Assembly (NCBI GenBank): GCA_905178155.1
Contig: CAJINV010000004.1
Span: 2,854,460 to 2,918,459 of the forward strand
Direction of reading: 5' to 3'
DNA length: 64,000 nucleotides
From: Amoebophrya sp. A120
Lineage: Eukaryota > Protista > Dinoflagellata
Shown here: positions 157 to 62,800 of the stretch, one piece after another
How positions within the stretch are numbered: position 1 is the first letter of the stretch
How the letters are laid out: each line of letters begins with the position of its first letter
The notes under the pieces: generated by a model
The model's database searches: none
What the model saw: only the letters and a program-made list of their open reading frames with translations
What the model was told of the DNA's origin: nothing
Translations under genes and position numbers: made by a program

Positions 157-1782
157 CTCTTATGTATCGCTTCTGGCCCGTTTCGCGGAGTTTGGGCATT
201 ATCGAATGCAAATACGTCTGGGTCTGGAAAGGTGGAACTTGTGTTGCATGTCCTGCATTTCTGAAAAATCTGTATTGCATAGCCACCAAGCGCGCGACTC
301 TTTTGTGATGCAAGAACGCAGCTTGTCATGCGTGCTACGCATCAGACGGCGCCAACTAAACTTGTCATGCATGGCTGCACTTGAAAACACCAGACTCATC
401 CATGCCTCAGCATCACAAGTTTCCAGACCCAGACATATTTGCAATCCATAGGCATTGGCGCATTACGATGCCCGTTGAGGACGTTCTCGAGGTATCGCAA
501 GACAAAACTTTCTCCGCGGCAAGAACTTGTGACGCACTACTTCGTCCTTGAGACAGTTTTTTGTCATGCTGGTAATGCAAGAGAGGCAGCCTTCCTTGAT
601 GTGTGTTCTCGTGATGCAGCTGTGGTCTACTGATCGCATCAAAGATGAGTCTGCAAAGGTTGGAGATTGAGACACTTTTTTCATCTTGCGATACGATGGC
701 GTCTAGATGCAGTTCCCGCTTGAACTCCCACATTTCTTTCTTTCGCTGCTTCAGCCGTGGTGACCTGCAAATGAATCGAAGATGAAGAAATTATCTCATT
801 ATACAACTTTAAAGATAAAGTACAAAACTGTTGCAGTTGCTCCTTCAGCTTCAAAAGCAAAACTTACCTGTCATCCGGCAGAAAGTCTTTTCGGAATTCG
901 CTCGCGGACGTGCTATGCAACGCAAAAGTGATTCTCTTGTGCTGCAGTTCTGGGATCTTCAAATAATGAAACCAGATCACATATGATCTTGCATATCGTT
1001 TTGCCTCCAAAGAATAAGAAATAGGAGGCATAATTCGTGGTTGTAATGAGTAGAATTCTTCAATATAATGGTTTACGCTTCTCCATGCTCCTCTGTACGA
1101 CTTCAGGCTACTTCGCACGACGTATCTATGTAGCTTTCTAATTTTAGCGCACGAGAACAATTTTTGTCTTCTTTGTTCACCCTGGATACGTGAACTCGGC
1201 TTCATATTTGTTGCCGAAGTCACTCTATCGAAGGCAAAGATATCTGGGTCGTCTGGATAAACAAGCAGGTACCTACTGGATTCGGCATGCAGAGCCTTGC
1301 ATGACAGAGCAACCTTTTGTAGGACATGAACGCAACACCACAAGTTTTTCTGGTCTTCTAGGCGAATTCGACCGTGCGTCGCATGACAAACTGAAACTTC
1401 CAGCAAGATAGACAACATCAAATGTGGCCACTTGCATTCCCGCATGACAGATCTCGCTGCCCTTCAACTTATTTCGCATTACAAGTGTTTTCCAGAGGAC
1501 CGCCCAGACATATTTGCAATGCATACGTCCTTCGTCTGCAGCTCTTCCTGTGGTATTCCTAATGCTATTCTCGCGGCGTCTATCCAGGAAAAAACACCCA
1601 TCGATCCCCATCATCCATTTTTTGCATTCCAAATAATGGACTTTATGCATGTTTTGCATGACAAATTGGACGGGGCTGGGTGTTTTTTCCTGGATAACGT
1701 CGACAGCGGAAGGGCCGTAGTGCTCCTGCAGGTGGTGCAACCGGAGCGTGACCGGGTCCGTGTGCCCCTTGCTTTTCGACAT
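1..1782 (-). CDS. Hypothetical protein, multi-exon, 3' part beyond window start
   Basis: Removing the introners and one GT-AG intron (~767-868) joins an open frame: MSKSKGHTDPVTLRLHHLQEHYGPSAVDAARIALGIPQEELQTK..DFGNKYEAEFTSASEFRKDFLPDDRSPRLKQRKKEMWEFKRELHLDAIENVLNGHRNAPMPKLRETGQKRY. No family recognised. Confidence 0.6.
200..450. mobile_element. Introner, family B (tgtctgggtctgga TIR)
   Basis: TAT..ATA; DR ggcat/ggcat. Confidence 0.85.
493..693. mobile_element. Introner (tatcgcaaga TIR)
   Basis: tatcgcaaga..tcttgcgata; DR cgagg/cgatg. Confidence 0.8.
914..1188. mobile_element. Introner, decayed
   Basis: tatgcaacgcaaaag..cctggata; DR cgtgc/cgtga; frame restored. Confidence 0.65.
1226..1525. 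mobile_element. Introner, family B, decayed DR
   Basis: tatcgaaggcaaagatatctggg..cccagacatatttgcaatgcata; flanks cactc/cgtcc. Confidence 0.7.
1581..1696. mobile_element. Introner, family F
   Basis: Perfect 20-bp TIR tatccaggaaaaaacaccca; DR gcgtc/acgtc. Confidence 0.85.
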
Positions 1783-1971
1783 TTTTTGCGTATTTGTTTT
1801 CTTATTCACAAAAATGAAGGCAACTAGTACTACAACAATCAAAGAAGCCACGCTGCGAAGAGATCATGGTGTAAGAAGTAGTTTTTCATCACCTTGACCG
1901 GCTTGTTCTGATTATATCGACCTTGTTCTTCCCCTAATACTTCTGAAAGGTGTAAAAATTCTTGCCACGAT

Positions 1972-4754: not shown

Positions 4755-7700
4755 TCATGCGCATGCGCATGACATCACCGTACTTTGTTCACTAAACACA
4801 GTTTTTTCCACCTTGGATACCCACATCCGCAGAAACAAGGCGGGCGCCGCACTCTGCGCAGCGAACCAGCCCACGGGCGGGCCCACGCCCGGCACGGCGA
4901 TCAGCAGAATTAATAGCATATGCATTGCAAAAGTATCGCACCCGTATTGCTCGCGGTTATGCATGTGCATGACAGATCAATCTACTCTCTAATCTGAAAC
5001 AGCATGACAAATGCAAATTTCAGTTTGTTGTTTCCGGAAAATTTGCAAATTATGTAATGTTGAAATTTCCACCAACACGATAGTTTTGCAATTCATATGG
5101 CAGCCCAAAACCGAACAGTTCCGGCTCGTGTGCCGAGCGCGTTTGGTATGAGCGTGCGCGGCTACTTACCGCCCCCACCCCCTTTTATTTTTGAAATAGC
5201 CTAACAGGTGCAATGGATAATGGAATGAACGCCAGGGCCAGCAGCCGAGCAAACATGGACTCTGTGCATGAAAACAAATTCCTGGTGCGCCTGGATCTGA
5301 AATAATTTATTTGCATGACACATGGGAGGGAATGAAGCAGAAGTCCTCGTGCGCTGTTCTCATATGTCGCTCCACCGGCGGTCCAGGAAAGGCGTCGGAG
5401 CTGCAGACGACTTAGTGGAAGAAGAGTAAGCGGCGCCACCGGGAGCATTTTTTTCTGATGTAGAATTACCGCCCCCGCCCCGGTTGAACTTTCCGTAGCG
5501 ATTTTGCACGGAAGCAGTGGCCGCTGTCACGAGAGAAGAGAGGGCGCCCGCGCTCTTGCTGAGGAGGCGCTTGGCAGGTGAGGCAGGTGCCGAGGCTTCT
5601 CCATGCTCGAGATCGAATCCGATTGCACAACCCCCCCTCGAACGTCCCCCTGAATTGTGTGATATGAGCCATAAGTAGCTGAGACACACACTCGTCAAGT
5701 AGAACTGTTGTAGCTTCTGCATCACAAATCCGGGCATGCGCATGGGCTTGGCTTGTTCCGCAGTCATTTGATATCATGCGATCAGTACCAAAAGGCAGCA
5801 AGAATAACTCCGCGAGGACTTGTTCGCCTTCTTCTTGGTACTTCTACTTCGCACGTTGAGAAATAAGGAGAACATCAAGGCGGAGTTGTGTTGAACTCGT
5901 CTCGTAGGCCACCAGAAGCAGCAAGATCTTGAAGACCTTGTTCGGGGCCCCGCTGCCGCGCGTCATCACTCCTCATCATCTTCGACCTCGTATGCAAGCA
6001 GAAAACTGCGAAACAAGGTGTAACCTTGTGTACTAGTTGCATATTACGTGGTGATGTGTAAAACAGTTATAATTACTTCTTCTTGCGAATCTGCATGACA
6101 TGTTGCGTCTTTTTAGACTAGTTCCGTACTTTTTTAAGTACTTTCTGGTGCAGCAACAGGCCGGAATTCTGTACAAATAATAAACGAAATGAAATTTGTA
6201 TAACAAGTATGCAAATGTTGTTCCTGCTCCGATAAAAAAGCTACACTCGTCACAGAAGCTACAGCTACTACAGTTACACTACAATTTGTCTCTTGGATAC
6301 GTCGCCATTACCACCTCCGGTGGTGGCAGCCGTCCAGTTTTTTTGTAGCGAAAGTAGGCGTCGCGCGGCACGAATTCCAGCCGACGGTGCTCTTGGTGGT
6401 AGAACAGCACGCAGTCCGGGTGCTCGCGGAGCCGGGCAATGACCGGGTCCAATACCTCGCGACAGAGCGCGGATACGGCGATGAAGTAGGACACAAACTG
6501 CAGCAGGTTTGGCGTCAGGAAGGGAAGGAAGAAGGTCATATGGAAGCGTCAGGATTGAAATCGTCAAAGTTGAAATAACTTGTAATGCATAAAATCGATA
6601 CCAGTTGGAAGCCCAATTTTCAAGCGGTGCATGACAAATTTCGGCAACGTGTAAATCCAGTTTGTCATGCTGTTTTGGGACAGAAGGCGTCTTTTGTCAT
6701 GCTACTTCAGCAGCTCTACCGCACACCCCAAACAGGCTGACTGTCGGCCTCACTTGCCATCCCGGCAAGAGAGGCACTTCATGCCTTGCAATTTATGCAT
6801 GAGAAATTATTTCAACTTTGACGATTTCAATCCTGACGCTTCCATACGTCACGCAGGCACAGTAAAAGGCGCGCTTCAGCCCCAGTTTGTCGTAGATCAC
6901 AAAAAATTGGAAGACCTGGTACCCGTACCGAAATCGCGCCTGGTGCGAGGAAGCAGAGGAGGAAAATGAGGATGATGGAGCTACTGCAGAAGCTGCTGCA
7001 CCAAGACTATGATCGGAACCGTCACCACCATCGTCAGGCGAAGAGCTACTTGCACTGCCCTCTGCGGTACCGACGCCGGTGATTCGGCTATGCATTGCAA
7101 AAGTATGATCCTCGCGCTCCAGAGCTAGTGTGCGCTTGGGCGTAGCCTGTGCCTGCTTCATCGTCCCAAGTTCTTAAAATCACGCCCAGTTTGTAGTGCT
7201 GGCGAAGGCCGCCCCCGTCGTGGGACACTAGATGTAGATTTTTTGTCATGCTGTATTCACTTCAGGTTCAGTAGTTGCACGAGGTGGACGAGCTCGATAA
7301 ATGTTATACTTTGTTTTGCAGAGGGTAGAGGCCTGTTGCAGCCGTTGGTCCTCCACCGAGCGTTGAGAAAAGGTAGAAACCGATGAGCACGAGGACCCCG
7401 ATCTATCCTGTGCAAAAGTATCGTACTCGTATTGCAGTCATGCATTACAAATTTTTTTCTTAAGCTGCGTCAGCATTACAAATTTTATTTCTAATGCTAA
7501 GGTGGAAATTTGTAATGCATTCATAACGTCGAGTACGATACTTTTGCAATTCATACGATCAGGTTCCGCACAACTCTGTAGGCCATGGCGTCCACAGTGT
7601 TCGAAACCGCTGGGAGGGCCTGTATTTGCTCCACGAACTCATCGACGTTGGAAATGGGCAGGGTCGAGTACTGCTCCAGCTCTGGTCGTGCAATTCCTCC

Positions 7701-9034: not shown

Positions 9035-10293
9035 AGTACCGCTCAAGGAAGACGATGTGGACGGCGCGAGCCTCGGCGTCAAGAATATAAACCGCAGCCT
9101 CATGTTCGATTTCTTGTGCTGGTATCACAACTGTAACTTTAGTTATACGCTTTTAAAGGTTAAAGATGAAGACCAACAGTTTAATATTGCCCATACAACC
9201 AGAAGGAGAAGTCAAGGTGAAGGTCAACAAAGAAATACAGAAATATATTCTACGTCTACAAGGAAAAGGCGGGAGTCGAGGTCGCTTCAACCTTGACTTT
9301 GTTCTTTGTCACGCACAACCACCGGGGTAAACTTCATACATACGAATCGCACCTCTTTGTTCTTCTTGCGCATGTGACTGATAAATTTTGATGGAGGCTG
9401 GCTTCAGATAGATCCTGATACAGGCAGGTGATAGATCTTAAAAGAGATAGATAGATCTTACCGACCTGGTGGCAACCTTTCTTATTGCCAATAAAAGTGT
9501 AAAATTTTTGTGAGATCGTTCGGGGGCGGAAGCCATACTCCCTCCACACTTCCAAGGTGGCGGTCAAAGTGATCATCTTCATCTCAGATGGAGATGGACT
9601 GGAAGCTTGTACCAGAACTCTAGGATTGCAAAAACAACCACACGAGCATATCTATCATTCAACGTGAAGACGTCGAAACCTCCTCGACATGAATGAGAAA
9701 AGACGATGAATCCGAACCACATTGTTTTCACTTCTGATCACGTAAGAAAGACCAGAGGACGACTAGGACCATGAGAAGGGGACCTACATATAAAAAGCGC
9801 GTGGCATCTTATTTGTAGCATGGGGCAAATACGCTTAAAGTTCAACGACCATGTGCTCGTAGTACTTTACTTATGTAGAAGAGCACGAGGTGGAGACGAT
9901 GCTGAAGAACAATTATCCGCGGCCCCTGTTGCATTTTATTTCATGCGGACCACGCCGGAAGTCTGTGGCGTTCGCACGATCGTAATTGTTGCAGAAGCAG
10001 AATGCGCTTGATGAAGATGTTGCTCAGTGTGACTATCGGCCATTAAAATGGGCATATGTAGTTGAGCACAGCGGGTCGCGCAGAGACAAAATGGAGACAG
10101 CACTTGATCTTATTCTTAATGTTTGTTTCCTTGTAGGCATGTGCTCTACTGCAACTGTCTCTACGTGGGCTAGTATGCCATCCGCACATGTCTCTGCTTT
10201 CGGGGCGGACAGCAAACAGAGATTGTGCTGGATAGAAAGATAAGAATTGGCGCCTTGATGTTCTCATGATGTTCTCTACTACAACAGAACAAC

Positions 10294-12816: not shown

Positions 12817-14253
12817 GGTGGTTAGACTTAGATAGGAGTTGTAGACCAGTGATATACGACTAGGGGCGAAACTGCAGCAGCGCTACAAAGTGCTTCAAGA
12901 ACAAAAGTCTGGATGAAAACAGATGAAGTTGAAGGTACTAGCGCGCATGCCATGCAAGGAAGAACTTATTCGGTATTAAAATTGCTGTTGCTCCGCATCA
13001 TAACATGGAATAAACAAGGGTATATAAAATCTTGTCTTCGAAGGATCGTTAGGTCGCTCCAGATACAGAAACAGTTTCCGTACAACTTCTATTCGCTTGT
13101 TCTGTTCTATATTTCTTGCGCGACGAGAGATAATACCATGTAGGTAGACCTGTGCAGATATTATTAGACAGAGTAGATGTAGTCGTGCCGGCTGCACCAG
13201 GACAAACGATTCTTGCTCCGCGTGTCACTTCTAAAAATGGTCTTGTCTACTTCATGATTCTGCGGATGCAGACGCCGGCAAAACCTATTCCAATTCGAAT
13301 GAATGTCACCAGGACAACATCGTCGAGAGGAAAGGCTGCAGTTTATTTCTTGATCAACTAATAAAATATGCACCAATTTATCGATGATAAAAATTTGCAC
13401 CACCAACTGAAGATCGCCACATTTGAATTTCTTATAAGGATCTTCATCTTCATCTATTAACATTGACACGGATTTTTCAAGTATGAAGAAGTTCTCACGC
13501 GTGGTTACACTGATCGCTGTTCTTTTTACACGTTTTAGTATGCAGAGTCAATATCACATTCCATGGCCACAAGATGATCAACAAGCTGCTTCGCGTGACA
13601 AGAAATTTTGATTTTCGTTTAGTTCGACGAAGTCCTAGATACTGCTATAGAAGTATTCATTGGAGGAATGATCTTCCGTGGCGGATCTGTGCTGCAAGAA
13701 GGAAGCGCCAGCTCCCGATCAGTATAACGCTTGAGGGTTGAGATGAAGATCGCTTGTACGTGTACCGACAAGTGAAGCAGGCATAAACTGATAAGTCATT
13801 TATACACTGACCTGAGGCTAATTTTTCACCGATGCTGCATTTTGATCCGCTCCCTCGTAGTTAGAACAACATTTTGTTTTTTCAAAACAATTCTGCAATA
13901 GCGGCGGTACAACCTTAAGCTTACAGACCAGTCGAAGGAGCTCTGCGGACCTCCTCGGCTGCAGTACAATGGACACATCAAGGTCCATCACATGATCTTC
14001 GGTGGAGTAGACGCATATTATTTTTTAATATAATACAACAGAGGCAGCTGTTGATTTAAATTCATTTCGGCCTAGTACAAGAACTTCTTGGTGGTCCTCG
14101 ACGTCTCAATGTTGGCTTCAAAGTGACAAGAAGGACGAAACCGAAAGTGGGATATTCCGTTCTGTTCCCCAATATCATCGTCTGGTGGATCACCTAGCAA
14201 GACTTCTACCCCGCCACACACGAAACAGCGGCATCTCCTCAGCTCGTCCTGGT

Positions 14254-45400: not shown

Positions 45401-45549
45401 GATGCGGATGAACGCGGGCGGCCCCTGCCCTCTTCTTGTTTGATCCCGTCATGATCTTCTGGTGCGCCGGTAAGGGCCACTCTCTCGTCCTCTGACGGCC
45501 CGTCCTGTTCGTCAACAGCAACAGGACCGTAGTTGGCCGCGGCCATCAT
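39496..45549 (-). CDS. Equilibrative nucleoside transporter (SLC29/ENT) with very long low-complexity N-terminus and loops
   Basis: FLGLETLLPYN (TM1), STGQGLAG, LFLCYVTTFALFPG, IFDVVGR, LRIAFIPLL, FAVTNGYLST after removing introners at 41079, 40490, 40228 and 39699. Confidence 0.85.
39699..39851. mobile_element. Introner, family A
   Basis: DR gtagc/gtagc; joins TNGY|LST. Confidence 0.9.
40228..40436. mobile_element. Introner (tatcMaagaaaaaaac TIR)
   Basis: DR tctga/tctga. Confidence 0.85.
40490..40641. mobile_element. Introner, family A (reverse of 15335/30639)
   Basis: DR agagt/agagt. Confidence 0.9.
41079..41330. mobile_element. Introner, family B (252 bp, reverse of 19060)
   Basis: DR tcttc/tcttc. 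Confidence 0.9.
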
Positions 45550-49800: not shown

Positions 49801-52800
49801 AGCGTCTGGGTCTGGAACAAAGTATACTTGTCATGCTAAATCTGAACCTTCGCTACCCGCCATGCTAAATCTGAATCATGTAAAAGCTCTGTGTTGTATG
49901 ATTGCCAAAAGCTGTCCACTTTTGACCTAGTCGACAGGTAGTTTCTCATGCTGCAAAGGCATGATAGAACTCTCACAGAATCTGTCATGCTATGTCCTAC
50001 ATGCCAGACCTCCTGGGACATGGAAAACCTGCATGACAAGTCTGGCACTCTTCCAGACCCAGACACTTTTGCAGTTGATAGAAAGGCGACGACATCGAAA
50101 ACCCCGGTGACCGGGTCCCACCATGTCGGATGCTGTCGCAAGAAACTCCAGTAACTCTCCGGTAGCGGACTCTGGTCCGCTTCCGCGAGCGCGAAGTCCA
50201 CCAACCGACGGAACTCGGACCACCGCAGGGGAACCACGGAGCTGTTGTTTTTCGCCAAAAAGTCGAACAGCTTCGTCCGTAACTTCAGCCAGCAGGGCTG
50301 CAACTTTTGCGCGACCGCACGGAGGGAGAGGTAGAACAGCAGCGCTTCGACCGTGTACAGTGCGTCCATGGGTTATGCAACACAAATCTAGCATCGTACT
50401 ACACGGACCATCTGCTATCAAAAGCTGTGGGGTAATGCTGAGTTTGATTGTAATACCAGCAGCAAAACTTTGTCATGCAATAGTGCATTTTCATTTTGTG
50501 CGTCCTGTAATACGGGAGTAAACTTCCTGTAGATATCGGCTTCTCGCGCAAATGGTGGACGACAGGGACGGATTGGTGCAACAAAGTCGTGAAAAATGAG
50601 GAAGAGGAAGTTGTGCTAGTCTTCACGGCAGCAGAAGTTGCACCAGCATCATCACCCACTGAAGAGGACACCATCAACCCCTCCAGCAGGCACTTGGGGA
50701 CGATTGAAGTGATCATGTCTTTCAAGACGGTTCCCTCCGCGCCGCCCTTTCGGTACGAAGCGTCTTGTATCCGGGTGATCAGGTTCACCACCTGTGGCTG
50801 CGGTGCCGCAGCAACCCCTCCTCCAGATGAACCGGCTGTATGCAACGCAAAAGTTGCATCGCTGTCGTACTAGTGCTGCGGCTATTGATAAAGGTAATTC
50901 TAATTCTAATTGCATATACAAAGTTGCTCAGCATGATCATGATGTAATGCTACGAAAGTACACCTTCGGAAAAAAATGTCTTGCATGACCGCATTTTTTA
51001 GTACGACGGCGATAGTTAGTACTTTTGCAATGCATAAGCCGCTCCACCACCACCTTGGCTCGCGATCTGCTCGTCGGCGAGCAACTTGCACAGCACTTCC
51101 ATGATCAGCTCCAGGGGCGGACGCAGTTTTTTCGCGGCGGCGATCGTGGGCGGGCCGTGCCCGAGCACCCAGCTCCACTTGGTTTGGGTCGCCACGCTCG
51201 GGATGCTGTAGGAGGGGGTCACTAAACTGGACGGGAGCATCAACATGGGAGCAGGTGGTCCACCACGAGCAGTTGTTCCACCACCCGTAGGATCGGAGGG
51301 CACTGAAATTGCAGCACCACTCAAGGGCGGGAACGACGTCGTTGGGTCCACCCGCAAATCCGTTTCCAGCCCCGGAACGCAGACTTGGTAGGAAAACAAA
51401 AACTTTCCGACGAGTTCCGTTTTGGAGGAAAAGCTGCCCCACGCGCTGGTCTCGATCGCACCCACGTCCGCGTAGAGTGTCATACTGCCCTCGCCGATGC
51501 AGGCGGGAGCTGTGGTAGGAAGGAAGTTCCTCGTTCTTCAAAATATGAGGATTTTGACTAATGGCCGCAGCTGTAACTCATACATAGAAATAAATACTTT
51601 CTGGTTACGCGACAGTGACTACATCAGAAAAAAACAAGGATAAAACCCAATCCTACCCGCCCCACTCCCGCCGATTTGAAACAGCTTGGCCGCCACTCGC
51701 ACGATCTGCTCTGGGGCTGGGATGGTTTTCGGTTTCGCGGGAATTGCAATGGTATCCAGGAAGAAACTAAACCCATCCCCTGGAGATCATCATCAACTTT
51801 TTGCATGACAGACAATGCATCTGATGCACGTTTTGCATCATGACAAATTGGTGGACAGGAGAGTAGACGGGTGTAGTTTTTCCTCAGTGGATAAATGGGT
51901 ACCAGTTCGTCCACCGGCCCGAGTTGCGCCCAACTAGAGTTGGGCGCGTCCAAAAACGCGGTGACTTGTAGCGGCAAACTCCGGTGGTTGGTAGTCGCCC
52001 CGGCGGTGGTGGTCAAAGCGTATTCCACGTAGTAGCAGACATTGTTCCCCACCATACCGTTCCGGACCACGGCGCCCTTCAGCCGCAACAGCATCTTGCG
52101 CTCGTGCCCCGTGATCTCCTTCGGCAGAGGCGGTGGAGCAGGAGCCGGTGGAACAGCAGCGCCCGGAGCAGGAGCGCCAGGTTTCGGTACGGCCGACGAG
52201 GGTTGCGCCATCGCCGCGCTCCCGTACACCGAGGACACGGCGCTGCCCCCGTACACCGAGGTCGGCCCGCCGAAGGAACTTGCAGAGGGCGCTTTCGGCA
52301 TAGCGGGCAGAGTAGAGGATCCGACTCCTGGTTTATTGCTCGCAGCTCCAGATGAGTCCGCGTTTATCCCGGTCAGATACAGCAAGCTCATCACATCCGC
52401 GTTGGGTAGGGTGATGGAAAATTTCACGTCAACGGACGCTAGGAACTCCCCCGCACTTTGCTGCAGAAACAGCTGTTGTTGGTGAGCAGAACTCATGGCG
52501 CCGGACGGGCCGGCCATTTGCGCGGAACTTGGCTGGGCCATCATCGTGGTTCCGGCTGAGGTGGAAACCGCGACGTTAGCCGGCCCACCGGACGTGAAGG
52601 TCGCGCCTTGGGCAGCTGCTGCACCAGGGCCAGTTGTAGTACCTCCCATCGGTCTGTTCACACCTCCCGGTCCTCCTCCGGCGGGAAACGCAGAGGAGGA
52701 ACTGCTGCTCTCCGGCCCGCCTACCTTCGCGTGGAACTGGGCCTTGCGGTTCAACACCAATGCGGATTGTGCCTTGGACGCGTCGAGTTGGCTGTGCAGC

Positions 52801-55800
52801 AGTTTGAGCGGGAAGGTGTCCTTCGCGAGGCACACCTCCACCGACTTCGCGCGGTCCAGCTGGTGGAATTCGTCATTCTGCTCGATTACCAGCCACAGCT
52901 CAATCACGCCGATGTCGGACTTGAGAGCCTCGAAGAACCCCGGGGTCGGCGGCAGCAAAGGGGATTGCCACTGCCAGTATCCACAGAAAAAAACCCATCC
53001 ACATCCATTTTTTGCATGGCAAACACATGATTTCATACGTGTTTTGCATGACAAATTGGATGTGGGTTGGTTTTTTTCTGTGCATAGCCAGTCGCCGAAG
53101 TCCAGAGCAGTGTAGCCTGGTTTGCTGGTTGTAGCGGGAGTTGACCCTGATGAAGACCCCGTGGCGGGAGCTTGTCTGAAATTGCTCATGGAGCTCGTAC
53201 TTGACGCCGCTGGAACAACACCAGCAGGACCAGCCGCTTTGCTTGCTGAAGCACTTGGCATGAAACTCAGGGACGCGACCGCGGCCTTCGCGGCCGAATT
53301 CGCGACGGAGCTGTCCATGGACTGCGCCACCACCGGCTGACTGTCCGTCCCGCCGGCCATGCGTGCTTTCGCTGCCGCCACTGGGGATAGGTCGCCGTTT
53401 TGCGGAGGAAGCGCTGAAGAGGGCTTCATCGCACTTGTTGTACCAGTAGATGCGTTTGCTGCAGAAGCTGCGCTAGTAGTTGTAGCTCCTGTGGGACCTC
53501 CTGCTGCTGCAGCCGGTGCGGCAGCAGTAGCTTTGTTCGCAGCAGAAATTGCTCCAGCTGCTGTAGGTGCTGGTGCTCCTGCTGGTGCGCTGCCGTTTTT
53601 ATTACCTGAAGACGAGGAAGCGGACGACCATCCCAACAACAAGGATGCCAACGACATGGGCTTCGGCTCTCCCGAAATCCAGGCGCCACCGCAGGCCGCC
53701 TGCAACTTCGGGTGGTTCGGGAACAAACCGATGCGCAGCACCACGCGCACACTCTGGATGTCCAACACGCTTGTGGACACGCTGGGTTGCAGCGAGCTTT
53801 TGTACCACTGCTCCGCGAGCCGGCGGAACAGATCGGGATTCAACTCGCCCCTGGACAACCCAATCTCGATCCCCACCGTGTTCTCCACCGTTTGCTCTGT
53901 TCGAGACACACGGGAGACCGCACCTCCACCGGATAGACATGAGCCCCGCACCGTGGAAAGTGGCGGGAAAAACACCATGCCGGCACCACCGGCACCACCA
54001 CCAGCTCCAGTGGAAGATGATGACATCGCAAACGCTGTGTCTGCTTGCGCGGCGCTCCTGTAGTCCCCGCTTTTTCTCCTCGGTAGCGAAGAGTCAAGTG
54101 CTGCGCCAGCGCCGTTCAAAGTTATTCCTGGGAGAAGCAGGTCAGCGCTTGCTCCTGCTGGTCCTGCTCCACCACCCCCTCCCCCGCCAGCGCGCATTTG
54201 GTACGACAGCAGGCTGTTGCCTTCAAACGTGGTCCGCCAACGCGGGGCCTTTGCGGTGCAAGCCCGGCGAATCTGGTAGAACAGGCGGACCACGACGCTG
54301 CCAAGTCTCGTCCCGTCACTGGACAACACCGGCACCGGGTTTTCCCACGTGGCGCCCAGCAAAGCCTCGGCCTTCCAACCGCCTTTGGCCTCGGCAACGT
54401 CGTCCAAGAACGCGGCGATTGCCTCCGTCGGAAAGACGCAGCGACCGACGGTAACCGCAGTGCTGCTGCTGGAAGCGGTGTTATCGAGGTACCGCAACGC
54501 GCTACGGGTGTTGTTCACCGTCGTCCCTGCTGCTGTTTTATCAAATGCAAACTACATGATCTCTACGTCTGGAACTACGTGCTAAAGTTTCTTGTCAACT
54601 ACATGCAGGTTTGGCATGGCCCAGATATGGTCTGGAACTACGCGTACGCAGGGCCCCGCATCACAAGTTTTCATGCGACGGATTTGCAGTGCCTGTTGCG
54701 CATGAGAAATCTTCATCTCTCAACAGCGTGGCAGATGAACATGCATTCTGCCATATTACGCATTACAGGTTCACTCGTCTTGTGTGTCCTCTCACAAACA
54801 GCATCACAAGCTACTCGAATCTGTATTCCAGGAGATGTTCTTGACCCAGACATCATGTTTGCAAAAGTTCATATGCACCTGTTGTAGCTGTGCCGTCGGA
54901 AGTGTAATTGCTCCCACCGCGGTTCTCCGGTAAAACACGCACCACATCGAGCAACAGGCCGCAGGAAAGCGTTCCTAGCCGCACTTCCTGGATGAGCAGG
55001 TCCGTCAGACTGTCCCCCGCATTTGAGGCCAAGCAAAACGTGTGCGACGCAGCAAAGTCCAAAGGGTAGAAGCCACCCGCTTGGCTACTCGTGGTTTGCG
55101 CTTGATACGTCGTGCCGTGGCAGGCGTAGCGGAGAAAATACCGTGGCTGTGCGCCGCTTCCTCCGTTTTCGGAAGTGCCGGCAGGGAGCGACATTTATGA
55201 AAGGGCACAAGACCGCAATTGTTTATAGTGGTCCCCCTGCTGCGCCTAGTTCTAACCAGGGGGCACGGCCAGCAAGAACAGAAACAGCTTTCCCTATATT
55301 TATATTTCCATTTCGTTTTCGCTTTCGCAGTTTGCATGACAAACGAGGGCGACGACTCGTGTTCTTGGGTTGTGCGCTTTCATAAAGTCAAATCGGTTCC
55401 CAGAACGCGGATTTCTAGCTCGTGTTCGTCATAATCAGAGGTGATGAGAGGAAGAAGGGAGAGCCGACGGAGAGGGTAAGAATCTTTATAGCCGGTCTGC
55501 TGTTCATCTCCTGTGTCGTCTTTGATAGTTCTCGTCAACGTCGGACTACCAGCAGCAGCGATCCCACCAGCTGCACCTGCACCTCCTGTGTAGCGGAAGT
55601 AGAAGTTTGTCAGCGCCGAAGCGTTTTGCAGCACCTGCAGGCACTCGCTTTCCGTCAAATTGCACTTGTCCAGCAAGTTTTGCAGCAGCTCCTTGCTGTC
55701 CACACTGTCTTGGTCTTGGTCAAGAAGAAACGAGGACACTGCGAGCTTGTTGTCCGCCTGCTGAAACTTGCGCCAGGTTTTTTCTACATCGGTTTGCTGC

Positions 55801-58800
55801 TCGCCAGTGGTTGTAGTTCCTTGCCGCGCAGCTGAGGATCCCGACACGCCGAACGCCGTGGAGCATTTGCTGGTACGACCAGGCCCCCTGGCTGCACCTC
55901 CGGACGGTGACCTAACTTCGTTTTCTAACACAAACAGGTTCATCCCGGAATCGTTCCGATTTGCTGGTTTCTGCAGTGAAGACGAATTGCCTCCAAATCG
56001 CCTTCTCCCAGCACCTCCCGAAGTAGATGTTGCCGCTCGGTTGGCTCGGGCGAAAGTTTCGCAGCTGGCACGGTCCACCGTGCGAGCTGATTCGACGGTT
56101 GCGGACAATGTTGAACTTGCCCCGGGGTAAATCAACGCCAGGAGGTTCTTCAGCTCAAATACGGGAATCCCGTTCTGGTCGCACATGCGCTCTTGGAAAA
56201 CCTTCAACGGGAGGGAGCCCTGATCCTCGAAAACGCTCGGCAAAGCGTTTGTGAACGCATCCAGGTCGAAGGATGTTGCTTGCTCGAAAGCCTGCAGGGT
56301 CAGTGTCCACGTTGGTTTCACCCCGAGGTCCTCCGCGGTAATGTCTGCTGCAGAGGAAGAGCTGCCACTATCTTCCTCCTGCAGAACCGTCGTCACAGCG
56401 CGGCGCAGGTCGCTGAAATCCAGAAACCCCTTACTGCCGCGGTCTAGCGACTTGAACGCACTCCCCAGGCTGATGTCGTTGCGGCGCATGGTTTGCGACA
56501 GTTCGAAAAAGAGCAAAGGAACCAAATGCTGCGCTTTGTTTTTCATCGTGGTAGACGTAGAGCCTCCTGCGGTTTCCTCTTCCGCGCCGGCTTTGCCTGC
56601 ACTCCCGGCCGTACTTGCGTCTGTTTGTAGCTGCTTTTCTACTTTGTTCGTCGCCGAAACAACGCCGACAGAAGTGGAGCTTTTGCTGGACGAACCCGAC
56701 GAGGCAGTTGCAGCTCCGCCCGCCTTTGACGCGCGGCGACTGAAAGTTGTGGTTTTTTCCGAAGCCGTTTTGGGCAACACCCGGTCCACCAGGCCGGGAA
56801 TCTGAGCGAAGTCGAAAACCGACGTTGGCGGCGCGCGGAGGGTGAGAAAGCCGTTGCTCGCCGCAATCACGGTGTCCACAAAGTCGTCAATCAGCTCGTC
56901 GTCTGCCGGCAGACTGGTAGTACTGTTGTTGTCCTTTGCCAACAGAGTCCGCACCTGCGCCGCATCCAGCCTCGCCCCGAAGGTTTCGGGCGGCAGCGAC
57001 GGCGCAAGTTGCTGCAGAATGGTGAAGCCCACACTCAGTGCGTGCTCGAGGTACATGCGCTGCTCGTCGCGAAGCGCGTCGAGGAGTTCCTGAGAGAGAA
57101 TGAATAGTGAAGCAGGTTCTGTCCGAACAAGAAAATTATGATCTTGAATGATAGTTCAGAGTGCACCATCAAAAGAAATTAGGTCGTGTTGCACGAGACT
57201 TGGCCTCGTTCTGGGCAGATCTTCCATAGATTTATCGGGGTATACTTTTCAGAAAGGATACCTTGTACGACACGAGATCCCCTTGGCGGTAGTCGTATCC
57301 TGTGCAAACCTATCGTACTCGTGGAAATGCATGACAAATCTCCTCAGCATTAGAAATGAAATTTGTAATGTGGATTTCGATTTACCAGAAGAAAAAAATT
57401 TGTAATGCATGACTGCAATATACTACGGGTACGATACTTTTGCAGAGCATAAATCGTTCCCCAGCACCCGCAAGTCCTCTTTGGCGAGAAAGACGCGGCC
57501 GACTGTCGCCGTCAAAATCTGACCGATTTGCTCGTCGGTTAGAAATATGCAGCGCAAAAAAATCGTGTTCGTACCAATTGCATGAGTACTTTTTGTTTTT
57601 ATAGCCATGGGCATGACCAATCTGCTTTAGCACAAGGTAAACTCTCAGGACTAACTCCATTTTTCATTGCCCATCAAACAAAGATGTATATGCAATTCAC
57701 TTGATATTGATTATATATACTGGTACGATACAAGAACTCTTGCACATGATAAGAAACCCGCTCTTCTTGGCGTCAGCAGCGAGGAAGCGGTCCACCAGGC
57801 TGCCGGGTTTGTTCTGTGGATTGGATGAACAAGTCGGAGCTATAAAATTAATGTGTCTTGCACTACTACTTGCACTGACACTGAGTGTAAACCAAGTTGC
57901 ACAAAGAACTTAGCCATACGCACTAAGAAGAGAAGCATACTTCTTTGACAATCTGTATCTGAATAGAATCCTATACCTTAGTCGCCCGGAAAACGACTTT
58001 CAAAAGTCGCGCCTTCAAGCTCTGCCGGTATTCTGCGGAGTCCAGAACTGCCGAGAGGAAATCCGACACCAGCACCTTCTCGTTCACCGCCAGTGTGCGC
58101 CACAATTCGGAGCGCGCCGTCTTCGGAAGAAAAGTCGGTGGAATGATGGACAGCCGTTCCTCCAGCTCCAGGCGGGACAAACTTTGCGTCGTCGCAGAGA
58201 GCGCGTTTGGTCTTGGCGCGTTGGGCGGCGCGGTTAGGTGGTTCGCGAGGTCGAAAATGATCCAGGAGTGCTTTAACAGCCACATCCGGACCTTCGGTAG
58301 CGGGGAGTTACTCGATATCACCACCGGGTACTCGTCCGACCATTTTGGCAGTTGCCCGACCGCTTTCAGCAGCTTCTCGAAGTTTTCCGGCGTGGTTGAC
58401 GTTGACGAGGACGAGGCTTGCTTGGTACTGCTGGTACTAGTTCTTGCACCACCATCTTCCGCATTATTATGTCCTGTAGTCGTGATCGCTCCAGCACCAA
58501 GGGCTCCTGCTCCGCCAGCCTGCTGCACACTGACCGCAGCTACATTGCTGACGTTAAGATTCGTGAGGAAGTCGAAGAGCGAATGCAGGTCCTCTTTGCT
58601 GTGCGCACAGCCACCGGACGTGGCGAGCAGGCTTTCGCAGGCGCCAACAAATCCGAACCGATCCAGCCTCGTGCCTTCCAGAGCCTGCGGGGCCAACGCC
58701 GGATATTGACACGAAATAATTCCACCTACACGACGTACAAACTTCTAAGCGGCATCTGCATGAAAGAACTGTTGCTCTGATGTGTCTCTCCGCTTCTATT

Positions 58801-58989
58801 CAGCATGACAAGTAGCTCGTATGCTCTAGAAAAACAGCGAGATTTCAATTTGATGACTTCATGTCGTGTTTTAGTTTATTTGTAAGTGTGCGGAAAATTT
58901 GTATCGGATACCGGCGGGGACGACGCTATTGCAACTGGTGGCGGGACTGCGGGTGGCGGCGGATCTGCGCCGGTCGTGATCGAGCTCAT
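46878..58989 (-). CDS. Very large multi-exon protein with EF-hand-like and C2-like segments
   Basis: Successive minus-strand ORFs join in frame across introners (e.g. SSPP|ALAPQ, DFGDW|QWQS, EKP|MDAL). EF-hand-like AFKSLDRGSKGFLDFSDLRRA and beta-rich C2-like stretches (TRLGSVVVRLFY; LKSDIGVIELW). That it is one gene is inferred; family not identified. Confidence 0.5.
47994..48132. mobile_element. Introner, family D (reverse of 17640)
   Basis: DR ccgct/ccgct. Confidence 0.9.
48370..49326. mobile_element. 805-bp insertion (48446-49250) inside a coding exon, flanked by a 76-bp duplication of exon sequence
   Basis: cgcgacgtcc...ggagacccgtt at 48370-48445 and 49251-49326 (1 mismatch). Both copies encode RVSSIKNAASREREVVEGTLLRTS. 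Confidence 0.8.
48700..48766. repeat. Perfect 25-bp inverted repeat with 17-nt spacer
   Basis: tccaactatggagacaattttggga ... tcccaaaattgtctccatagttgga. A third partial copy lies at 48799-48815. Confidence 0.9.
49788..50080. mobile_element. Introner, family B (left end CAT)
   Basis: DR caaag/gaaag; reverse relative of 20723. Confidence 0.85.
50374..50535. mobile_element. Introner, decayed
   Basis: tatgcaac..tgtagata; flanks tgggt/tcggc; joins EKP|MDAL. Confidence 0.55.
50839..51036. mobile_element. Introner, family A, decayed
   Basis: tatgcaacgcaaaagt..acttttgcaatgcata; flanks ggctg/agccg. Confidence 0.75.
52978..53086. mobile_element. Introner, family F
   Basis: tatccacagaaaaaaacc..ggtttttttctgtgcata; DR gccag/gccag. 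Confidence 0.85.
54539..54873. mobile_element. Introner, B-like, decayed
   Basis: tatcaaatgcaaac..gtttgcaaaagttcata; joins TTG|AAGTT in frame. Confidence 0.6.
57296..57451. mobile_element. Introner, family A
   Basis: DR agtcg/aatcg. Confidence 0.85.
58704..58910. mobile_element. Introner, D-like, decayed
   Basis: DR ccgga/ccggc; joins SSPP|ALAP. Confidence 0.65.
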
Positions 58990-59855
58990 GGTGGCGCGAT
59001 CTGGTAGGTACCGGGGGCGTTATGGTTGTATTTCTGCCTCTGTAGTACGTCTACGTGATCGAAGAAAAGAAGGCACCATCCAAGCGCCGGACCCAGAATG
59101 CCTGTGTCGCTAGGACCTCCGCACGAGCACGAGTGACTTCTTGATCTTTTTGTTTATATGGTTCTCTTCCAAACGGAAATCACCCAGCGGAACAACTATT
59201 TGTATTTCGTACGTATGGCACAAGGGTCAGCGTATTTATGTACTAGAAGTTACGGGACGATGTACAACTGTTGTGAAAAACTACAGTTGACACAGAAAGG
59301 AAAAGGCCACCTATTCAAGTTGCAGGTACAACACTTGGAGTTTGTTGCTGTTGCTTAGAAGCAGAGACTCAGCTTCACCATCGTCTTCCAGTTTGAAGGC
59401 TGACAACATCCCTATGTTGTCCACTCGGCAACATTTTCGCTTGTAGTCTCCGTCTCGTCGCAATTTTTACGAAAAAAACTTCGACTCAAGAAAGAACAAA
59501 AGCCTAGAGCTGGAGGTCCTCCTGCCAGGAGGGGCCGGAAGAAACACGAACTGACATCATGATAGCGCTGATGAAAAATCCCATAGCACTTCATCGGAAA
59601 TTATAGGTGGAGCTCAAGGCTCAAGGGAAGGACGTCGCAAGAACACACGATGAAAAAGTCCTAGGTGAAACGTGTAACAAGTACGAACTTACTACACTAG
59701 AAAAGTTAGCACTGCTGGCGCATTCTGTGTCTTTTATGTATTCATACAGAAATCGCTCTTGTTTCGCCTGGCCCTTTTTGTTGTGCTTGTCAGCGACCTC
59801 GTGGTAAGTAACCAGCAGCAAGGTTCATTGTCTCGCTCCTTCCCGCACGACTTCC

Positions 59856-62800
59856 TCAGACGAAGTTCGTTAATGCATTGCCCTCGTCCACAAATTCCTC
59901 GTCGGCTTGCGTCAACAGCCGAAAATGCTGGTGGTACGCGATGCCGATGGTTTTGATCGGTCCCTCCTCCATCACCGTGAACCGCGCCCCGTTCGCCGTG
60001 AACAGCAACGCCCACGGCTCCGTCACGTTGTGCCGTGTCGCGTCGTGGAACTGCAGCACCACCGTAAACGGGGCGGTCCGGCTGACGTGCCAAAACCCTT
60101 CCACCGCGTGAAGCTCGTAGGACTTCGCGTTATTATTTCTGGCAGAGTATAACGCGTGCTGTTCCTGTGGAGGAGATGGCGCAGCTTGTGCTTGATCTCC
60201 TGATCCGGAAAGGCTTGGAGTTGCAGAAGAACCAGTGGGAATACTAGCTCCGCCTTCCCCTGAAGCGGAAGCTGCAGATGGAAACAAACTCGTTCCCGCC
60301 CACGCTGCCAGGGAGTCCGACTTGTGACCCGGCGGTAGTTATCCATGGGAAATATGTCTGAGTGTCTGGAAGATTGCAACAGTTTTTGTCAACCTTGTCT
60401 GGCAGGACTCTGAGCTAGTTCGTGACGCATAGCCACGAACGAATCGCCTTGGCTGTAGTCTTGCTGCAAAAGCGCAGTCTACACATGGCAGCCCAAACAC
60501 TTGGCGTGCGCGACCACGGATCGCTACTTGCAGTGCACTCATCACAGTCATCATAGTCATTCCCACAGAGTTGCATTTTTACAATTTTCCAGACCGTCAG
60601 ACACTTTCGCAATGGATATTAGATGCGGAAAGTGTCGCAATCCCAGCTCGACCTGTCGCAGGTTTTGCTCGTAGATGTTCTGCATCAGCTGCGCCTCTAT
60701 GCATCGCAAAAGTAATATGAATATCGCACCAATTGTACTGTTGTAAAAATAGAATCACAACTTTGTTTTTCAGAAAGAAAGATCGGTGGATTTTCATCCA
60801 CTTACCAATTTGCTTGGGAGGACGAAAAAGGTGTGCACAAGTATGGTCATGCATGCCTGTTGCCATCGTAAATCACCCAATATTCGACGTACTACGAGGA
60901 CTCCGATACTTTTGCACGCGGGGGATACCTTCCGGAGCGAGAGGGGGGTGGTGCTTCGTCCTCCGGGAAAGGGACGTGGGAGTCCCGTAAGTATAACCCG
61001 CTCCTGTTGAACCACCAGAATCCACACGATAATTTCTCTCCACCTGCTGGGATAGCACCAAGCGAAACCGGTTTCTCTTGCGGAATTGCAGGTACCCGGA
61101 CACCCGCTGGAGACCCTGGCTGCGACCGCCTTCGAACACGTGGGGGATGGACTCGAGGATTATCCACAAAAAAACAACCATCCCCACCCTCCAATTTGTC
61201 ATGCAAAACACGTATGATTGAAGTTCTGTGTTTGTCATGCGTAAAATGGATGGTGGGGTTGTTTTTTCCTGGATAAGCATCCCGAGCGGCAAGGCTGGAA
61301 AGACGTCCATGAAGTGCTGTTGGAAGCGGGCGTTGTCGGCCTGCCACTGCAGGTCGTGCATGCAGAAGACGCCGTAGTTGAGAATGGACCTCTCCAGCAG
61401 CTGCCGCACCACTGGGCGGACGAGCAAGTTGCCGGTGCCAGAGGCTTCGTGTTCGTACTGGTAGAGCGTTTGCGGCTTCAACAGGATGGGCCGTGGGTCG
61501 TGCTTGATGTGGTCGAAAAGGTTTTCGAAAAGATTCTCCATTTTCCTCTGCTCGGAAAGATCAACATTCGACGAAGAAGCACTATTTCTACCCACGCCCG
61601 TCCGCAACGCCCAGTCCGCAAAGTCTCGGTAGACTTTCAGCATCTCATCGCGGCACTCGTGCAGGTCGCGGTGGAACCGCAGCAGGTTCTCTTCCGTATC
61701 CCGCCCGACGTCGCGCAGCCGGCAGGCGTGGCGGGAGGCAAACAGCCGCTCTCGGAGGTAGATATTGATATTGTTGGCATCGTTGTTCATCATGTTCGTG
61801 GAGCTGCTGGAGTGCTGCTTGATGTTCTTCTTGTCCACGATTTGTAGTTTATTTTCCGATTCCGCAAACCACTCTTTCGAAACGAACTGCGGTTTCAGTT
61901 CGACCAACAGCCCCTCCGGGTGCGTCGGAAAAAACGCGGCTTCCGGACGGGCGGCGGAAAGCATGCGGCCCTCGCGGTGGACCCACGGGCGTGTTGACGA
62001 GGAGGGGAATGGTGGTGGGCGAGTTTTTACTCCTGTTGTTCCAACAACTTCATTCTCTTCAGGACCTTGCTGTTCCCACCCTGTTCCCGACAGGTACTCG
62101 TCGAGTTTCGGCTGAAATTCCGCTTCCCAGCGGGTTTTCTGAACTTGGGGCTGCTGGTGCGCGGTTAGAGGTGGTTCTTCTTGCTTTTCGACGTTTTGGT
62201 CGTCATTTTCAGCCGCCGGTGGACACTGCAGCATGTGCGCCGCGTCGTTTTCGCCCCAGTTGTGCGGGAATCCGGAGCCGATGTGCTTCCACTTGGCCGC
62301 GAAGAAAGAGGTCAAGCCTGTGTCCTTAATCGCCTGCATGACGCCGGGAAAATAGAAGTCGTGGAAGATCAGCGTGTGGACGCAGCACGCCAGCTTCGAC
62401 AGCACTGCGTTAATGTCGAATAGCACCGCCGCGTGATCGTGCAGGGCGTCGATGAAGACGACGTCGATTCGGGTCGAGGAGAGCGCTAGCGGCCACGTGG
62501 CCCCCTCCTGATACAGGTCGAAGTTGAGCTTCAACAGATTCGGGTAGTTCGGCACCACCAGTTTGGTCAGCTGCGTCCGCTTCTCGATGCAGATCACCCG
62601 GTGGAAGAGCTTTACACGGATTTATCATTGTACAGGCGGCAGGGACGAGGAACAAAGGTGCTTTCACTGGTGGCGGTTGAGAATTTGATAATATCGATGT
62701 GAATGTACTACCTACGCTACAACTAAATGCAGAAAATACACACAAGTCAGGTCGTCTACCAGGGGGCCCCCAGGGCTCCTTCTCAACTCAATGCGAAAGT

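Follow-up and report, generated by a model that had tools for sequence, protein, structure and literature searches.

Spliced transcript contigs of Amoebophrya sp. A120, a marine parasite with genes full of transposon-derived introns, all fit removal of its introners at a single register, one nucleotide before the TAT and four nucleotides after the ATA that end each element (N-TAT…ATA-NNNN, hereafter 1/4). T at intron position +2 and A at intron position -7 are protected, and a drift of the introners towards GT-AG is not supported. On balance we lean towards the reading that a U2/U6 spliceosome in modified form makes the one 1/4 cut in these probable MITE-type introners: it would recognise T+2 and measure from a predicted branch A at -7, in place of G+1 and AG.

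Introners and their host genes

The 64-kb stretch of DNA analysed here (the window) yielded 62 curated introners that end TAT…ATA, carry direct repeats (DRs) of 5 bp and lie, every one of them, in minus-strand genes. Introner length is 114-636 nt including one DR (median 264). The DR is one 5-bp repeat flush with both element ends, perfect in 34 of the 62 elements and mismatched in 28. The terminal inverted repeats (TIRs) begin TAT, have an A-run about 10 nt inward and pair in the folds predicted for the 62 elements (mean pair probability 0.61-0.68, three terminal pairs). There are 41 different end types among the 62, and element families are repeated, with 14 end matches within the window against 0 in shuffles. 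BLAST matches between window elements and elements of other loci ran at 77-93%; none of those loci overlapped the window genes, and their oriented elements had a perfect DR in 262 of 352 cases and a mismatched one in 90. Elements showed no orientation bias. Short length, TIRs, a target site duplication of constant length and multiple copies are found, as in a MITE, and the A120 introners, with their TAT…ATA ends and repeats of 5 bp, are probably transposon insertions of the MITE type. The host genes are:

9981..13207, minus strand: SSF1/Brix gene, 100% identical to an Amoebophrya sp. A120 protein (SSF1/Brix exon: A25 ortholog 51% identical)
13998..21989, minus strand: host gene carrying 16 introners; the ORF of its spliced chain (13998-20085) is 840 codons on minus vs 313 on plus
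49500..58978, minus strand: part of a host gene; ORF of 2316 codons on minus vs 295 on plus in the spliced chain
59709..62618, minus strand: host gene; spliced chain has an ORF of 707 codons on minus vs 223 on plus

The window elements correspond to the published A120 introners in organism, inverted repeats, DRs, ends, length class and gene co-orientation: the genome paper describes TAT-starting inverted repeats, short DRs, non-canonical ends, a length of about 240 nt and co-oriented genes (Farhat et al., 2021; PMC7789003). The same account has splice sites that vary with respect to the hairpin, an unknown border position and DRs of 3-5 nt at several positions. As far as that description goes, the flush 5-bp DR, the single 1/4 register, the lack of GT-AG drift and the protection of T+2 and A-7 go beyond it.

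A single splice register

RNA evidence came from spliced transcript contigs of one sample, marked 'RNA?', which drop minor isoforms. With k the count of upstream-DR bases retained in the mRNA, the 1/4 register is k=4, and the register proposed in the earlier note, which cuts 2 nt ahead of TAT and 3 nt beyond ATA (2/3), is k=3. Elements leave the transcripts with non-canonical ends (27 element joints among those listed), and canonical GT-AG introns are removed from the same contigs. The only register compatible with every one of these 27 joints is 1/4. The contigs are informative for 16 of the 28 mismatched window DRs, and among the joints listed 1/4 fits 16/16, while k=3 fits 12/16 and k=5 likewise 12/16. 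The probability of a 16/16 fit is 2e-5 under a random register 0-5. The introns, with DRs given as upstream/downstream, are:

14550..14843, minus: element 14554-14842, DR cacac/cacgc, ends CT..CG, k at least 4 (excludes 2/3); joint 14548->14843, both=1, X1+X2
50370..50536, minus: element 50374-50535, DR gccga/accca, k at least 4; joint 50367->50535, both=2, X1-X4
55192..55385, minus: element 55196-55384, DR gactt/aatgt, k at least 4; joint 55190->55385, both=1, X1-X3
57292..57452, minus: element 57296-57451, DR cgatt/cgact, k at least 4; joint 57290->57452, both=1, X1 only
49784..50081, minus: element 49788-50080, DR ctttc/ctttg, k at most 4, 3' triplet variant ATG; joint 49783->50082, both=4, X1-X4
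50835..51037, minus: element 50839-51036 (earlier note), DR cggct/cagcc, k 2-4; joint 50834->51038, both=2
60336..60619, minus: element 60340-60618, DR tctaa/actac, k 1-4; joint 60335->60620, both=3
60694..60928, minus: element 60698-60927 (earlier note), DR gaagg/gaggc, k 3-4; joint 60693->60929, both=1
23928..24282, minus: element 23932-24281 (earlier note), DR tggaa/tagaa, k at least 2; joint 23926->24282, both=3; stop codon if k is 1 or less
10848..11184, minus: element 10852-11183 (earlier note), DR cggga/cagga, k at least 2; contig piece ends 10846, record length fits
17205..17377, minus: element 17209-17376, DR gcatc/gcctc, k at least 3; joint 17203->17377, both=2
20087..20265, minus: element 20091-20264, DR tggag/cgaag, k at least 3; piece end 20085 and record length 407
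54535..54874, minus: element 54539-54873, DR gtgca/aaaca, k at least 3; joint 54533->54874, both=2
61157..61276, minus: element 61161-61275, DR atgct/atcct, k at least 3; piece start 61276, X4 loose end 61157, record length 301
15538..15709, minus: element 15542-15708, DR ccgga/tcgga, k at least 1; joint 15536->15709, both=4
58700..58911, minus: element 58704-58910, DR gccgg/tccgg, k at least 1; joint 58698->58911, both=4

Because one register fits the 27 listed element joints and the 16 informative ones, a fixed, sequence-independent ruler set by the element ends is supported. The earlier note had rightly proposed such a ruler and had placed it one base off, at 2/3. In 4 of the 16 informative joints (elements 14554, 50374, 55196 and 57296) the mRNA carries the upstream copy at DR position 4, which contradicts the 2/3 cut and refutes it as a general rule. 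The argument that a wrong cut at 23932 would replace Trp with a stop is correct: the stop arises if fewer than two upstream bases are kept, and this requires only that k be at least 2. At 10852 the change sits in the intronic (downstream) DR copy, and orthologs carry Arg here.

A crossover that shifts within DR positions 3-5 from one element or molecule to another, with 1/4 as the commonest choice, seems to us very improbable. In its favour, none of the RNA-tested elements individually bounds k=4 from both sides, contigs hide minor forms, and the legend of Figure 3 in Farhat et al. describes the position of the splice sites as variable with respect to the hairpin (PMC7789003). Yet none of the 16 joints requires a k other than 4, and the likelihood falls to 0.039 for a random register 3-5 and to 0.06 for each of the two-register mixtures 3/4 and 4/5, against 1. 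Both ends would also have to shift jointly to preserve the frame, and no alternative letters occur at any DR among the joints listed.

GT and AG at the direct repeats and cut sites

The earlier note had further argued that AG at downstream DR positions 2-3 and GT at upstream positions 4-5 are favoured, in a spliceosome-related reaction that prefers them. Its six DR pairs (elements 23932, 10852, 50839, 1226, 60698 and 1581) read as written on the minus (sense) strand. Downstream AG holds for the five pairs cited for it, but the other 23 of the 28 mismatched window DRs lack it, which gives 5 downstream-only against 0 upstream-only (two-sided p 0.062). When copies were swapped at random, a downstream 5:0 for AG at one offset or another had p 0.03, and a 5:0 for any dinucleotide had p 0.06-0.16. 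Upstream GT is present at 1581, but the window tally is 1 against 1, without excess. A wider tabulation of 90 independent mismatched DRs showed no AG/GT excess: AG at 2-3 was downstream-only in 2 and upstream-only in 3 (7 vs 3 when pooled with the window, p 0.34), and GT at 4-5 stood at 2 vs 2. At the 1/4 register an AG at DR 2-3 falls at intron -3/-2, off the acceptor.

Across the 352 oriented elements, the letters at +1, -2 and -1 match the exon background, with G at +1 in 115 (p 0.32 vs flank G 0.30), terminal AG in 27 (p 0.76, background level) and GT-AG ends at 1/4 in 9 vs 7.8 expected. Of the canonical U2 end letters, the elements show T+2 and neither G+1 nor terminal AG. GT-AG ends at k=3 occur in 0/62 window elements and 4/352 others. 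DR tallies and cut-site letters leave selection for AG/GT unsupported at 2/3 and at 1/4 alike. The combination of a 2/3 cut with GT/AG selection at that position can draw on the 5/28 downstream-only AGs, and four of the five AG cases have RNA data compatible with k=3; against the four joints that exclude k=3, the independent tallies and the scarcity of GT-AG ends at k=3, we consider it scarcely tenable. A spliceosome-related reaction is still the best reading, without the AG/GT preference. Canonical introns lie close by:

51510..51656, minus: GT-AG intron GTAGGA..CACAG, same transcript as element introns; spliced contigs
57090..57261, minus: GT-AG intron GTATCC..CTCAG; spliced contigs
57814..57976, minus: GT-AG intron GTATAG..CACAG; spliced contigs
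11449..11858, minus: GT-AG intron GTACGA..TTCAG; inferred from length of spliced contig
20366..20635, minus: GT-AG intron GTAAAA..TTTAG; inferred from length of spliced contig

The remaining elements named here, two of them with the DRs of the earlier note, are:

1222..1526, minus: element 1226-1525 (earlier note), DR ggacg/gagtg, mismatches 2, 3, 4; predicted borders
1577..1697, minus: element 1581-1696 (earlier note), DR gacgt/gacgc; predicted borders
5987..6300, minus: element 5991-6299, DR cgacg/cgagg, GT..AG ends at 1/4 (only 1/62 window elements); predicted borders
7085..7328, minus: element 7089-7327, variant TAC as sense 5' triplet; the DR is mismatched at positions 4 and 5, enough to fix the register within this one element
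21210..21443, minus: element 21214-21442, sense 3' triplet variant ACA, perfect DR; record length
63451..63609, minus: element 63455-63608, sense 5' triplet variant TAC; predicted borders

Protected bases in the terminal triplets

T stands at +2 in 351 of 352 oriented elements. Among 412 oriented elements with 26 oriented TIR variants, the 5' and 3' ends differed at position 1, with 0 variants against 10 (p 0.002), and at position 3, with 9 against 1 (p 0.02), while position 2 had 2 against 4, the 1/4 register being assumed for most loci that supplied variants. The union of detectors (31 variants) gave 1:10 and 13:1 (Fisher 3e-5); the asymmetry was re-counted on the same DNA where it was first noticed and is not an independent replication. 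Protection is strand-asymmetric and falls on the T at +2 and the A at -7 of the intron; the base opposite each of them in the hairpin varies. T+2 and A-7 do not pair with each other, and wobble tolerance would predict the reverse asymmetry at TIR position 3.

Bases -8 to -16 showed no 5'/3' asymmetry and no likeness to a branch consensus that could pair with U2 (T at -9 in no more than 165/352). No strand-asymmetric upstream motif was found in -5 to -64 or in motif counts (1/60 positions at p<0.01), nor any polypyrimidine- or branch-like asymmetry in the 352 oriented elements. The first exon base (DR position 5) is a purine in 153/262 perfect DRs, near background. One weak 5' CAT candidate was also seen (L071, 75-186, DR 3/5).

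Mechanism and alternatives

Our best reading, to which we give about an even chance, has a U2/U6 spliceosome act on a donor whose +1 base is relaxed and on a 3' site that lacks AG and is located by counting from a branch A at -7. TAT would supply +2 to +4 of a GTA-like donor with +1 relaxed; the canonical donors identified are GTA in 5/5 cases. The first A of ATA would be the branch nucleotide and would place the 3' cut 7 nt further on, which is very close for a branch point. The inverted repeats may draw the ends together and let the element work in both orientations. Exactly one DR copy (4+1 bases) would exit with the element, and insertion would therefore be neutral at any site, with little pressure towards GT-AG. 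More tentatively, the A120 spliceosome may need only U+2 and a branch A placed exactly 7 nt before the intron end, read neither G+1 nor AG and possibly lack U1, so that any exonic TAT…ATA insertion, in either orientation, would be a perfect intron from the start with no later drift to GT-AG. In the published tables, the nine main A120 non-canonical ends all begin NT and the nine A25 ends all begin TT (Table S4, PMC7789003); T at +2 therefore recurs in an independent element family. The genome paper reports U2, U4, U5 and U6 in A120 and U1 as not found (PMC7789003). In Giardia and Trichomonas the branch point is described as fused to the 3' splice site, with the spacing between them constant, and these published precedents retain AG (PMC6679479). 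The retained AG tells against our reading, as do the short branch distance, the poor branch context and lack of asymmetry at -8 to -16, and the 5' CAT candidate.

The same 1/4 register could instead be set by a hairpin-measuring machine apart from the ordinary spliceosome, as proposed for euglenids, with circle release and with T+2 and A-7 as protein-recognition bases. We regard this as rather unlikely. The pairing of the TIRs in predicted folds, the absence of orientation bias, of polypyrimidine- or branch-like asymmetry and of GT/AG preference, and the report that U1 was not found speak for it, as does the Euglena code N3CDG…CH'GN5-6|R, which likewise has fixed spacers around an inverted repeat (PMC12501133, PMC11282704). 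However, Euglena is described as needing a complementary pair, whereas the protected A120 bases are non-partners, each with a partner free to vary, and T occupies precisely the spliceosomal +2 position, both in A120 and, according to Table S4, in A25. Splicing could also be spliceosomal with this register and a T+2 donor while the branch lies farther upstream at variable sites, A-7 being otherwise used or a small-sample effect. The poor match of the A-7 context to a branch consensus would fit, and the position-3 asymmetry rests on 10-14 elements, several from one TAC-ended subfamily; but -5 to -64 holds no strand-asymmetric motif, and without AG some feature must still set the 3' cut. We judge this version improbable.

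Non-canonical introns make up about 65% of those in A120, and the genome paper settled neither their borders nor the way they are spliced (PMC7789003). A fixed 1/4 register gives exact ends for each such intron, and tens of thousands of annotated junctions would be corrected by it. It also replaces "no clear signature" with a specific code, an N-T donor, A at -7 and a free acceptor, which predicts lariats branching at -7. Should a U2/U6 spliceosome indeed count from A-7, this would be a natural case of AG-independent, ruler-type choice of the 3' splice site. The absence of GT-AG drift contrasts with the recruitment of canonical-type sites in Symbiodinium and Polarella, and suggests that the machinery, rather than the introns, adapted.

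Comparison with known systems

Introner-like elements of Symbiodinium and Polarella glacialis are likewise dinoflagellate introns from DNA transposons with TSDs, some classes being bidirectional; as described, they draw their GH donors and AG acceptors from TSD or element sequence, shifting the frame to do so, whereas A120 is without such a filter, and the GA-to-GC conversion reported for them was not seen in A120 elements (bioRxiv 10.1101/2020.10.14.339549). The MITE introns of Fritillaria borealis are also transposon-derived, non-GT/AG and attributed to an adapted U2 spliceosome (PMC11282704, PMC13326754). They are reported to prefer AG-AC and AG-AT ends and to keep U1, in contrast to A120, where +1, -2 and -1 are free and U1 was reported as not found (PMC11282704, PMC13326754, PMC7789003). 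Giardia, Trichomonas and Spironucleus would share with A120 a 3' splice site that keeps a short and constant distance to the branch A, if the predicted branch at -7 is right; by the published account they keep a strong branch consensus and terminal AG, and A120 has neither (PMC6679479).

The N3CDG…CH'GN5-6|R signature of euglenids is absent from the A120 elements, which end N-TAT…ATA-N4. Euglena is described as using a complementary CDG/CH'G pair and an exon-start purine, whereas in A120 non-partner bases are protected, with T at +2, and circular release is reported for the euglenid introns (PMC12501133, PMC11282704). Shared with these nonconventional introns are a probable MITE origin, inverted-repeat ends, the lack of GT-AG and a fixed asymmetric spacer that is shorter on the 5' side, of 3 and 5-6 nt in the published euglenid cases and of 1 and 4 nt in A120 (PMC12501133, PMC11282704).

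Introner elements and their host genes

We curated 62 elements in the window, each with a TAT start, an ATA end, inverted-repeat ends and flanking 5-bp direct repeats (DRs; 34 perfect, 28 mismatched), together covering 22% of the sequence. They belong to an already published family, the introner elements that Farhat et al. 2021 (PMC7789003) described in A120, and their inverted repeats pair in predicted folds (0.61-0.68 for terminal pairs). The Fig. 3 legend of that paper describes the position of the splice site relative to the hairpin as variable and leaves the border location undetermined. Three candidates (33140-33552, 8743-8925 and 4136-4477) are degenerate or doubtfully paired, with ambiguous ends; window counts were made with and without the doubtful pair 33140-33552, and 8743-8925 was left outside the curated set.

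The host genes all lie on the minus strand: spliced-chain open reading frames reach 840, 2316 and 707 codons there versus 313, 295 and 223 on the plus strand, and under cross-validation a coding model called 61 of the 62 elements minus or tied. Pfam searches returned the following.

11860-12879, minus: exon with a Brix domain
35585-38185 and 60876-62621, minus: weak matches, under the curated cutoff, to nucleoside transporter and Methyltransf_24

The Brix exon protein matches one named Amoebophrya sp. A120 at 100% identity, versus 51% for the A25 ortholog. No Pfam family was found in the other 19 non-Brix window ORFs examined, and neither the viral_contigs scan nor the Rfam search gave a match.

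Elements are removed at a fixed offset

An earlier note had placed the cut 2 nt before TAT and 3 nt after ATA whatever the sequence, with mutations towards GT and AG favoured. The six DR pairs it cited do read as claimed, and at element 23932 (elements are named by start coordinate) use of the downstream base yields a stop codon. We compared the window with coded sequence runs over 4400-24399 (X8, X9, X1, X2) and 49500-64000 (X1-X4). X1-X4 are contigs of one sample, presumed to be of RNA origin, in which minor isoforms are hidden. They lack the elements and, among the joints listed, three canonical GT-AG introns, and their long spliced pieces contain no letter differing from the window. Of 66 joints 30 were listed, 27 being element joints, 13 with mismatched DRs; 10852, 20091 and 61161 were added via piece ends and exact record lengths. 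The tested set thus holds 16 of the 28 mismatched window elements, the 12 left out including 1226 and 1581. The DR mismatches lie at positions 2, 3 and 4 in 1226, at 4 and 5 in 7089 and at 2 and 4 in 63107.

Write k for the count of bases that the mRNA retains from the upstream DR copy. At 14554, 50374, 55196 and 57296, k must be at least 4, which contradicts the earlier note's 2/3 register (k = 3); at 49788, 50839, 60340 and 60698 it must be at most 4, and the remaining tested elements permit 4. A single register, k = 4, fits 16/16 elements, against 12/16 for k = 3 and 12/16 for k = 5, with no single tested element pinning k to 4 from both sides. Such a fit has a chance of 2e-5 under a random register, 0.039 under random choice among 3-5 and 0.06 under two-way mixtures. 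The intron is therefore N-TAT…ATA-NNNN, a 1/4 register that we hold to be very probably correct. The idea of a sequence-independent ruler stands, its place being off by one base; a register varying between elements or molecules is quite improbable given the common fit, and k = 3 with GT/AG selection is hardly credible. At 10852 the intronic copy is the changed copy, because two orthologs have Arg, as encoded by the upstream copy.

Excision at the DNA level is unlikely, since the canonical introns are also absent from the same contigs and a word comparison found a fraction of 0.86 of an element-rich stretch's words in X5 and X6. Among raw RNA runs, X9 gave no reads matching 4400-24399, and X8 gave 76, confined to short stretches inside or at the ends of elements, their flanks being unrelated (20898-20948, 19059); X8 appears to represent a related population that carries these element families elsewhere.

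In Table S4 of the genome paper (PMC7789003), the main non-canonical ends start with NT in 9/9 cases for A120 and with TT in 9/9 for A25. This pattern agrees with the 1/4 register, and aligner scoring could contribute to it. The A25 inverted repeats start with TTA, and A25 may be cut flush with the element, which would again make +2 a T and +3 an A.

No detectable drift towards GT-AG

Metagenome contigs under one assembly prefix, scanned for the element pattern, gave 143 loci (717 kb) with the same element families as the window. As none of these overlaps a window gene, their link to A120 is tentative, and the 1/4 register was assumed for them. They hold 539 unique elements, of which 352 were oriented and used and 187, unoriented, were excluded. 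All 340 of 340 neighbour checks of orientation were concordant, and reversed-sequence controls gave 6 false elements. Intron length in these loci has no mod-3 bias (129/108/115). A reading-frame test of the register met a stop in 1 of 75 loci elements, and there solely at k = 5; codon likelihoods summed over the loci favoured no particular k.

The five window cases with AG at DR positions 2-3 of the downstream copy are real, but they are only 5 of 28 mismatched DRs. Their 5:0 excess over upstream-only AG has a two-sided p of 0.062, or 0.03 with any offset allowed, and some dinucleotide would give 5:0 with p 0.06-0.16. The loci did not repeat the excess, and GT at positions 4-5, said to be gained in the upstream copy, was balanced in the window (1:1) as in the loci.

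Mismatched DRs with a motif in the upstream copy only : downstream copy only
Motif and DR positions; 90 loci DRs; window and loci pooled (117 elements, none significant)
AG 2-3; 3:2; 3:7
AG 3-4; 5:2; 6:3
GT 4-5; 2:2; 3:3
G 5; 8:6; 10:7

At the 1/4 register, G stands at +1 in 115 of the 352 loci elements (p 0.32), 27 end in AG (p 0.76) and 9 have GT-AG ends, versus 7.8 expected. From these DR and cut-site counts, neither an insertion filter nor the proposed drift to GT-AG is detectable, at a sample size that a weak effect could escape. An apparent purging of G at −3 and gain at −1 in the window (6:0 and 1:4) was dropped when the independent loci gave 5:7 and 10:5. Nor is the G-richness of DR position 4 a splicing filter, because perfect DRs mirror it with C at position 2 (87 vs 81).

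Two terminal bases are retained

The element detectors tolerated a single altered base in TAT, whichever end it was at. Counting sense 5' against 3' ends, the first found changes at position 1 of the terminal inverted repeat in 0 versus 8 cases and at position 3 in 6 versus 1; the second, with 26 oriented variants, gave 0:10 (p 0.002), 2:4 and 9:1 (p 0.02) at positions 1, 2 and 3. Their union (31 variants) gives 1:10, 2:4 and 13:1 (Fisher test of position 1 versus 3, 3e-5), figures that are small, include shared subfamilies and are a recount on the data that first gave the hint. The sole 5' position-1 exception is a weak pair.

In intron coordinates, T+2 (first T of TAT) and A−7 (first A of ATA) are retained and +4 and −5 vary. 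T+2 and A−7 are not partners in the hairpin, where +2 is matched with −5 and +4 with −7. Wobble pairing and a transcription-related strand bias of mutation were both rejected as causes: each predicts changes biased to the same end at positions 1 and 3, whereas the observed biases point to opposite ends. From +5 inward the loci elements show no strand bias relative to transcription: asymmetric families occur in both orientations (31:24, 42:47, 10:9), motifs are as frequent on one strand as on the other, and no pyrimidine or branch-like motif peculiar to the sense 3' end was found. A recurring TAC-ended subfamily (L049 8510, L053 9515, L072 11975, L016 13360, L046 3600; locus and position) has TAC mostly at the sense 5' end, with L046 as the one oriented exception.

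A proposed spliceosomal ruler and its alternatives

What the data show is removal at a fixed offset, no base preference at either cut and the protection of two terminal bases. We lean towards splicing at 1/4 by the spliceosome, with U+2 as donor and a predicted branch at A−7 as ruler. U at +2 is the spliceosome's donor base, and the elements would supply an NTA donor; the five canonical donors in the window, seen or inferred, are all GTA.

11449-11858: canonical intron, starts GTA
20366-20635: canonical intron, starts GTA
51510-51656: canonical intron, starts GTA
57090-57261: canonical intron, starts GTA
57814-57976: canonical intron, starts GTA

Two of these start GTAT, resembling a G-preceded element end, with no matching ATA end. 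The A at fixed −7 would be the branch nucleotide, setting the distance to an AG-free 3' site, and the paired inverted repeats may bring the intron ends together. Group II introns have their branch 7-8 nt from the 3' end. Branch-to-3' spacing is described as invariant in Giardia and Trichomonas (PMC6679479).

The bases around A−7 in the loci elements match U2 poorly and show no asymmetry, which speaks against a branch there; a spliceosome branching elsewhere is a rather unlikely reading. Excision by a euglenid-like hairpin machine is a less favoured but serious possibility: euglenid nonconventional introns share fixed asymmetric spacers with the A120 elements, whereas the euglenid signature is absent from them. 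Unlike canonical U2 introns, the introners lack a constant G+1 and AG, and they differ from the introners of Symbiodinium and Polarella, which recruit GH and AG.

The open literature searched, with subscription journals mostly outside it, yielded no description of the A120 register or protected bases, including the accessible portions of PMC12130899, PMC9860276, PMC12005148, PMC11282704 and PMC13326754. A question left open by the genome paper becomes directly testable once the register is corrected and T+2/A−7 is taken as the code.

A further repeat region

An exact 51-bp direct repeat (1972-2022 and 3402-3452) bounds about 1.4 kb of GC-rich DNA containing tandem arrays of GAGAGG opposed to CCTCTC (2675-2790, 2952-3150). 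This region may represent either a duplication or another mobile element.
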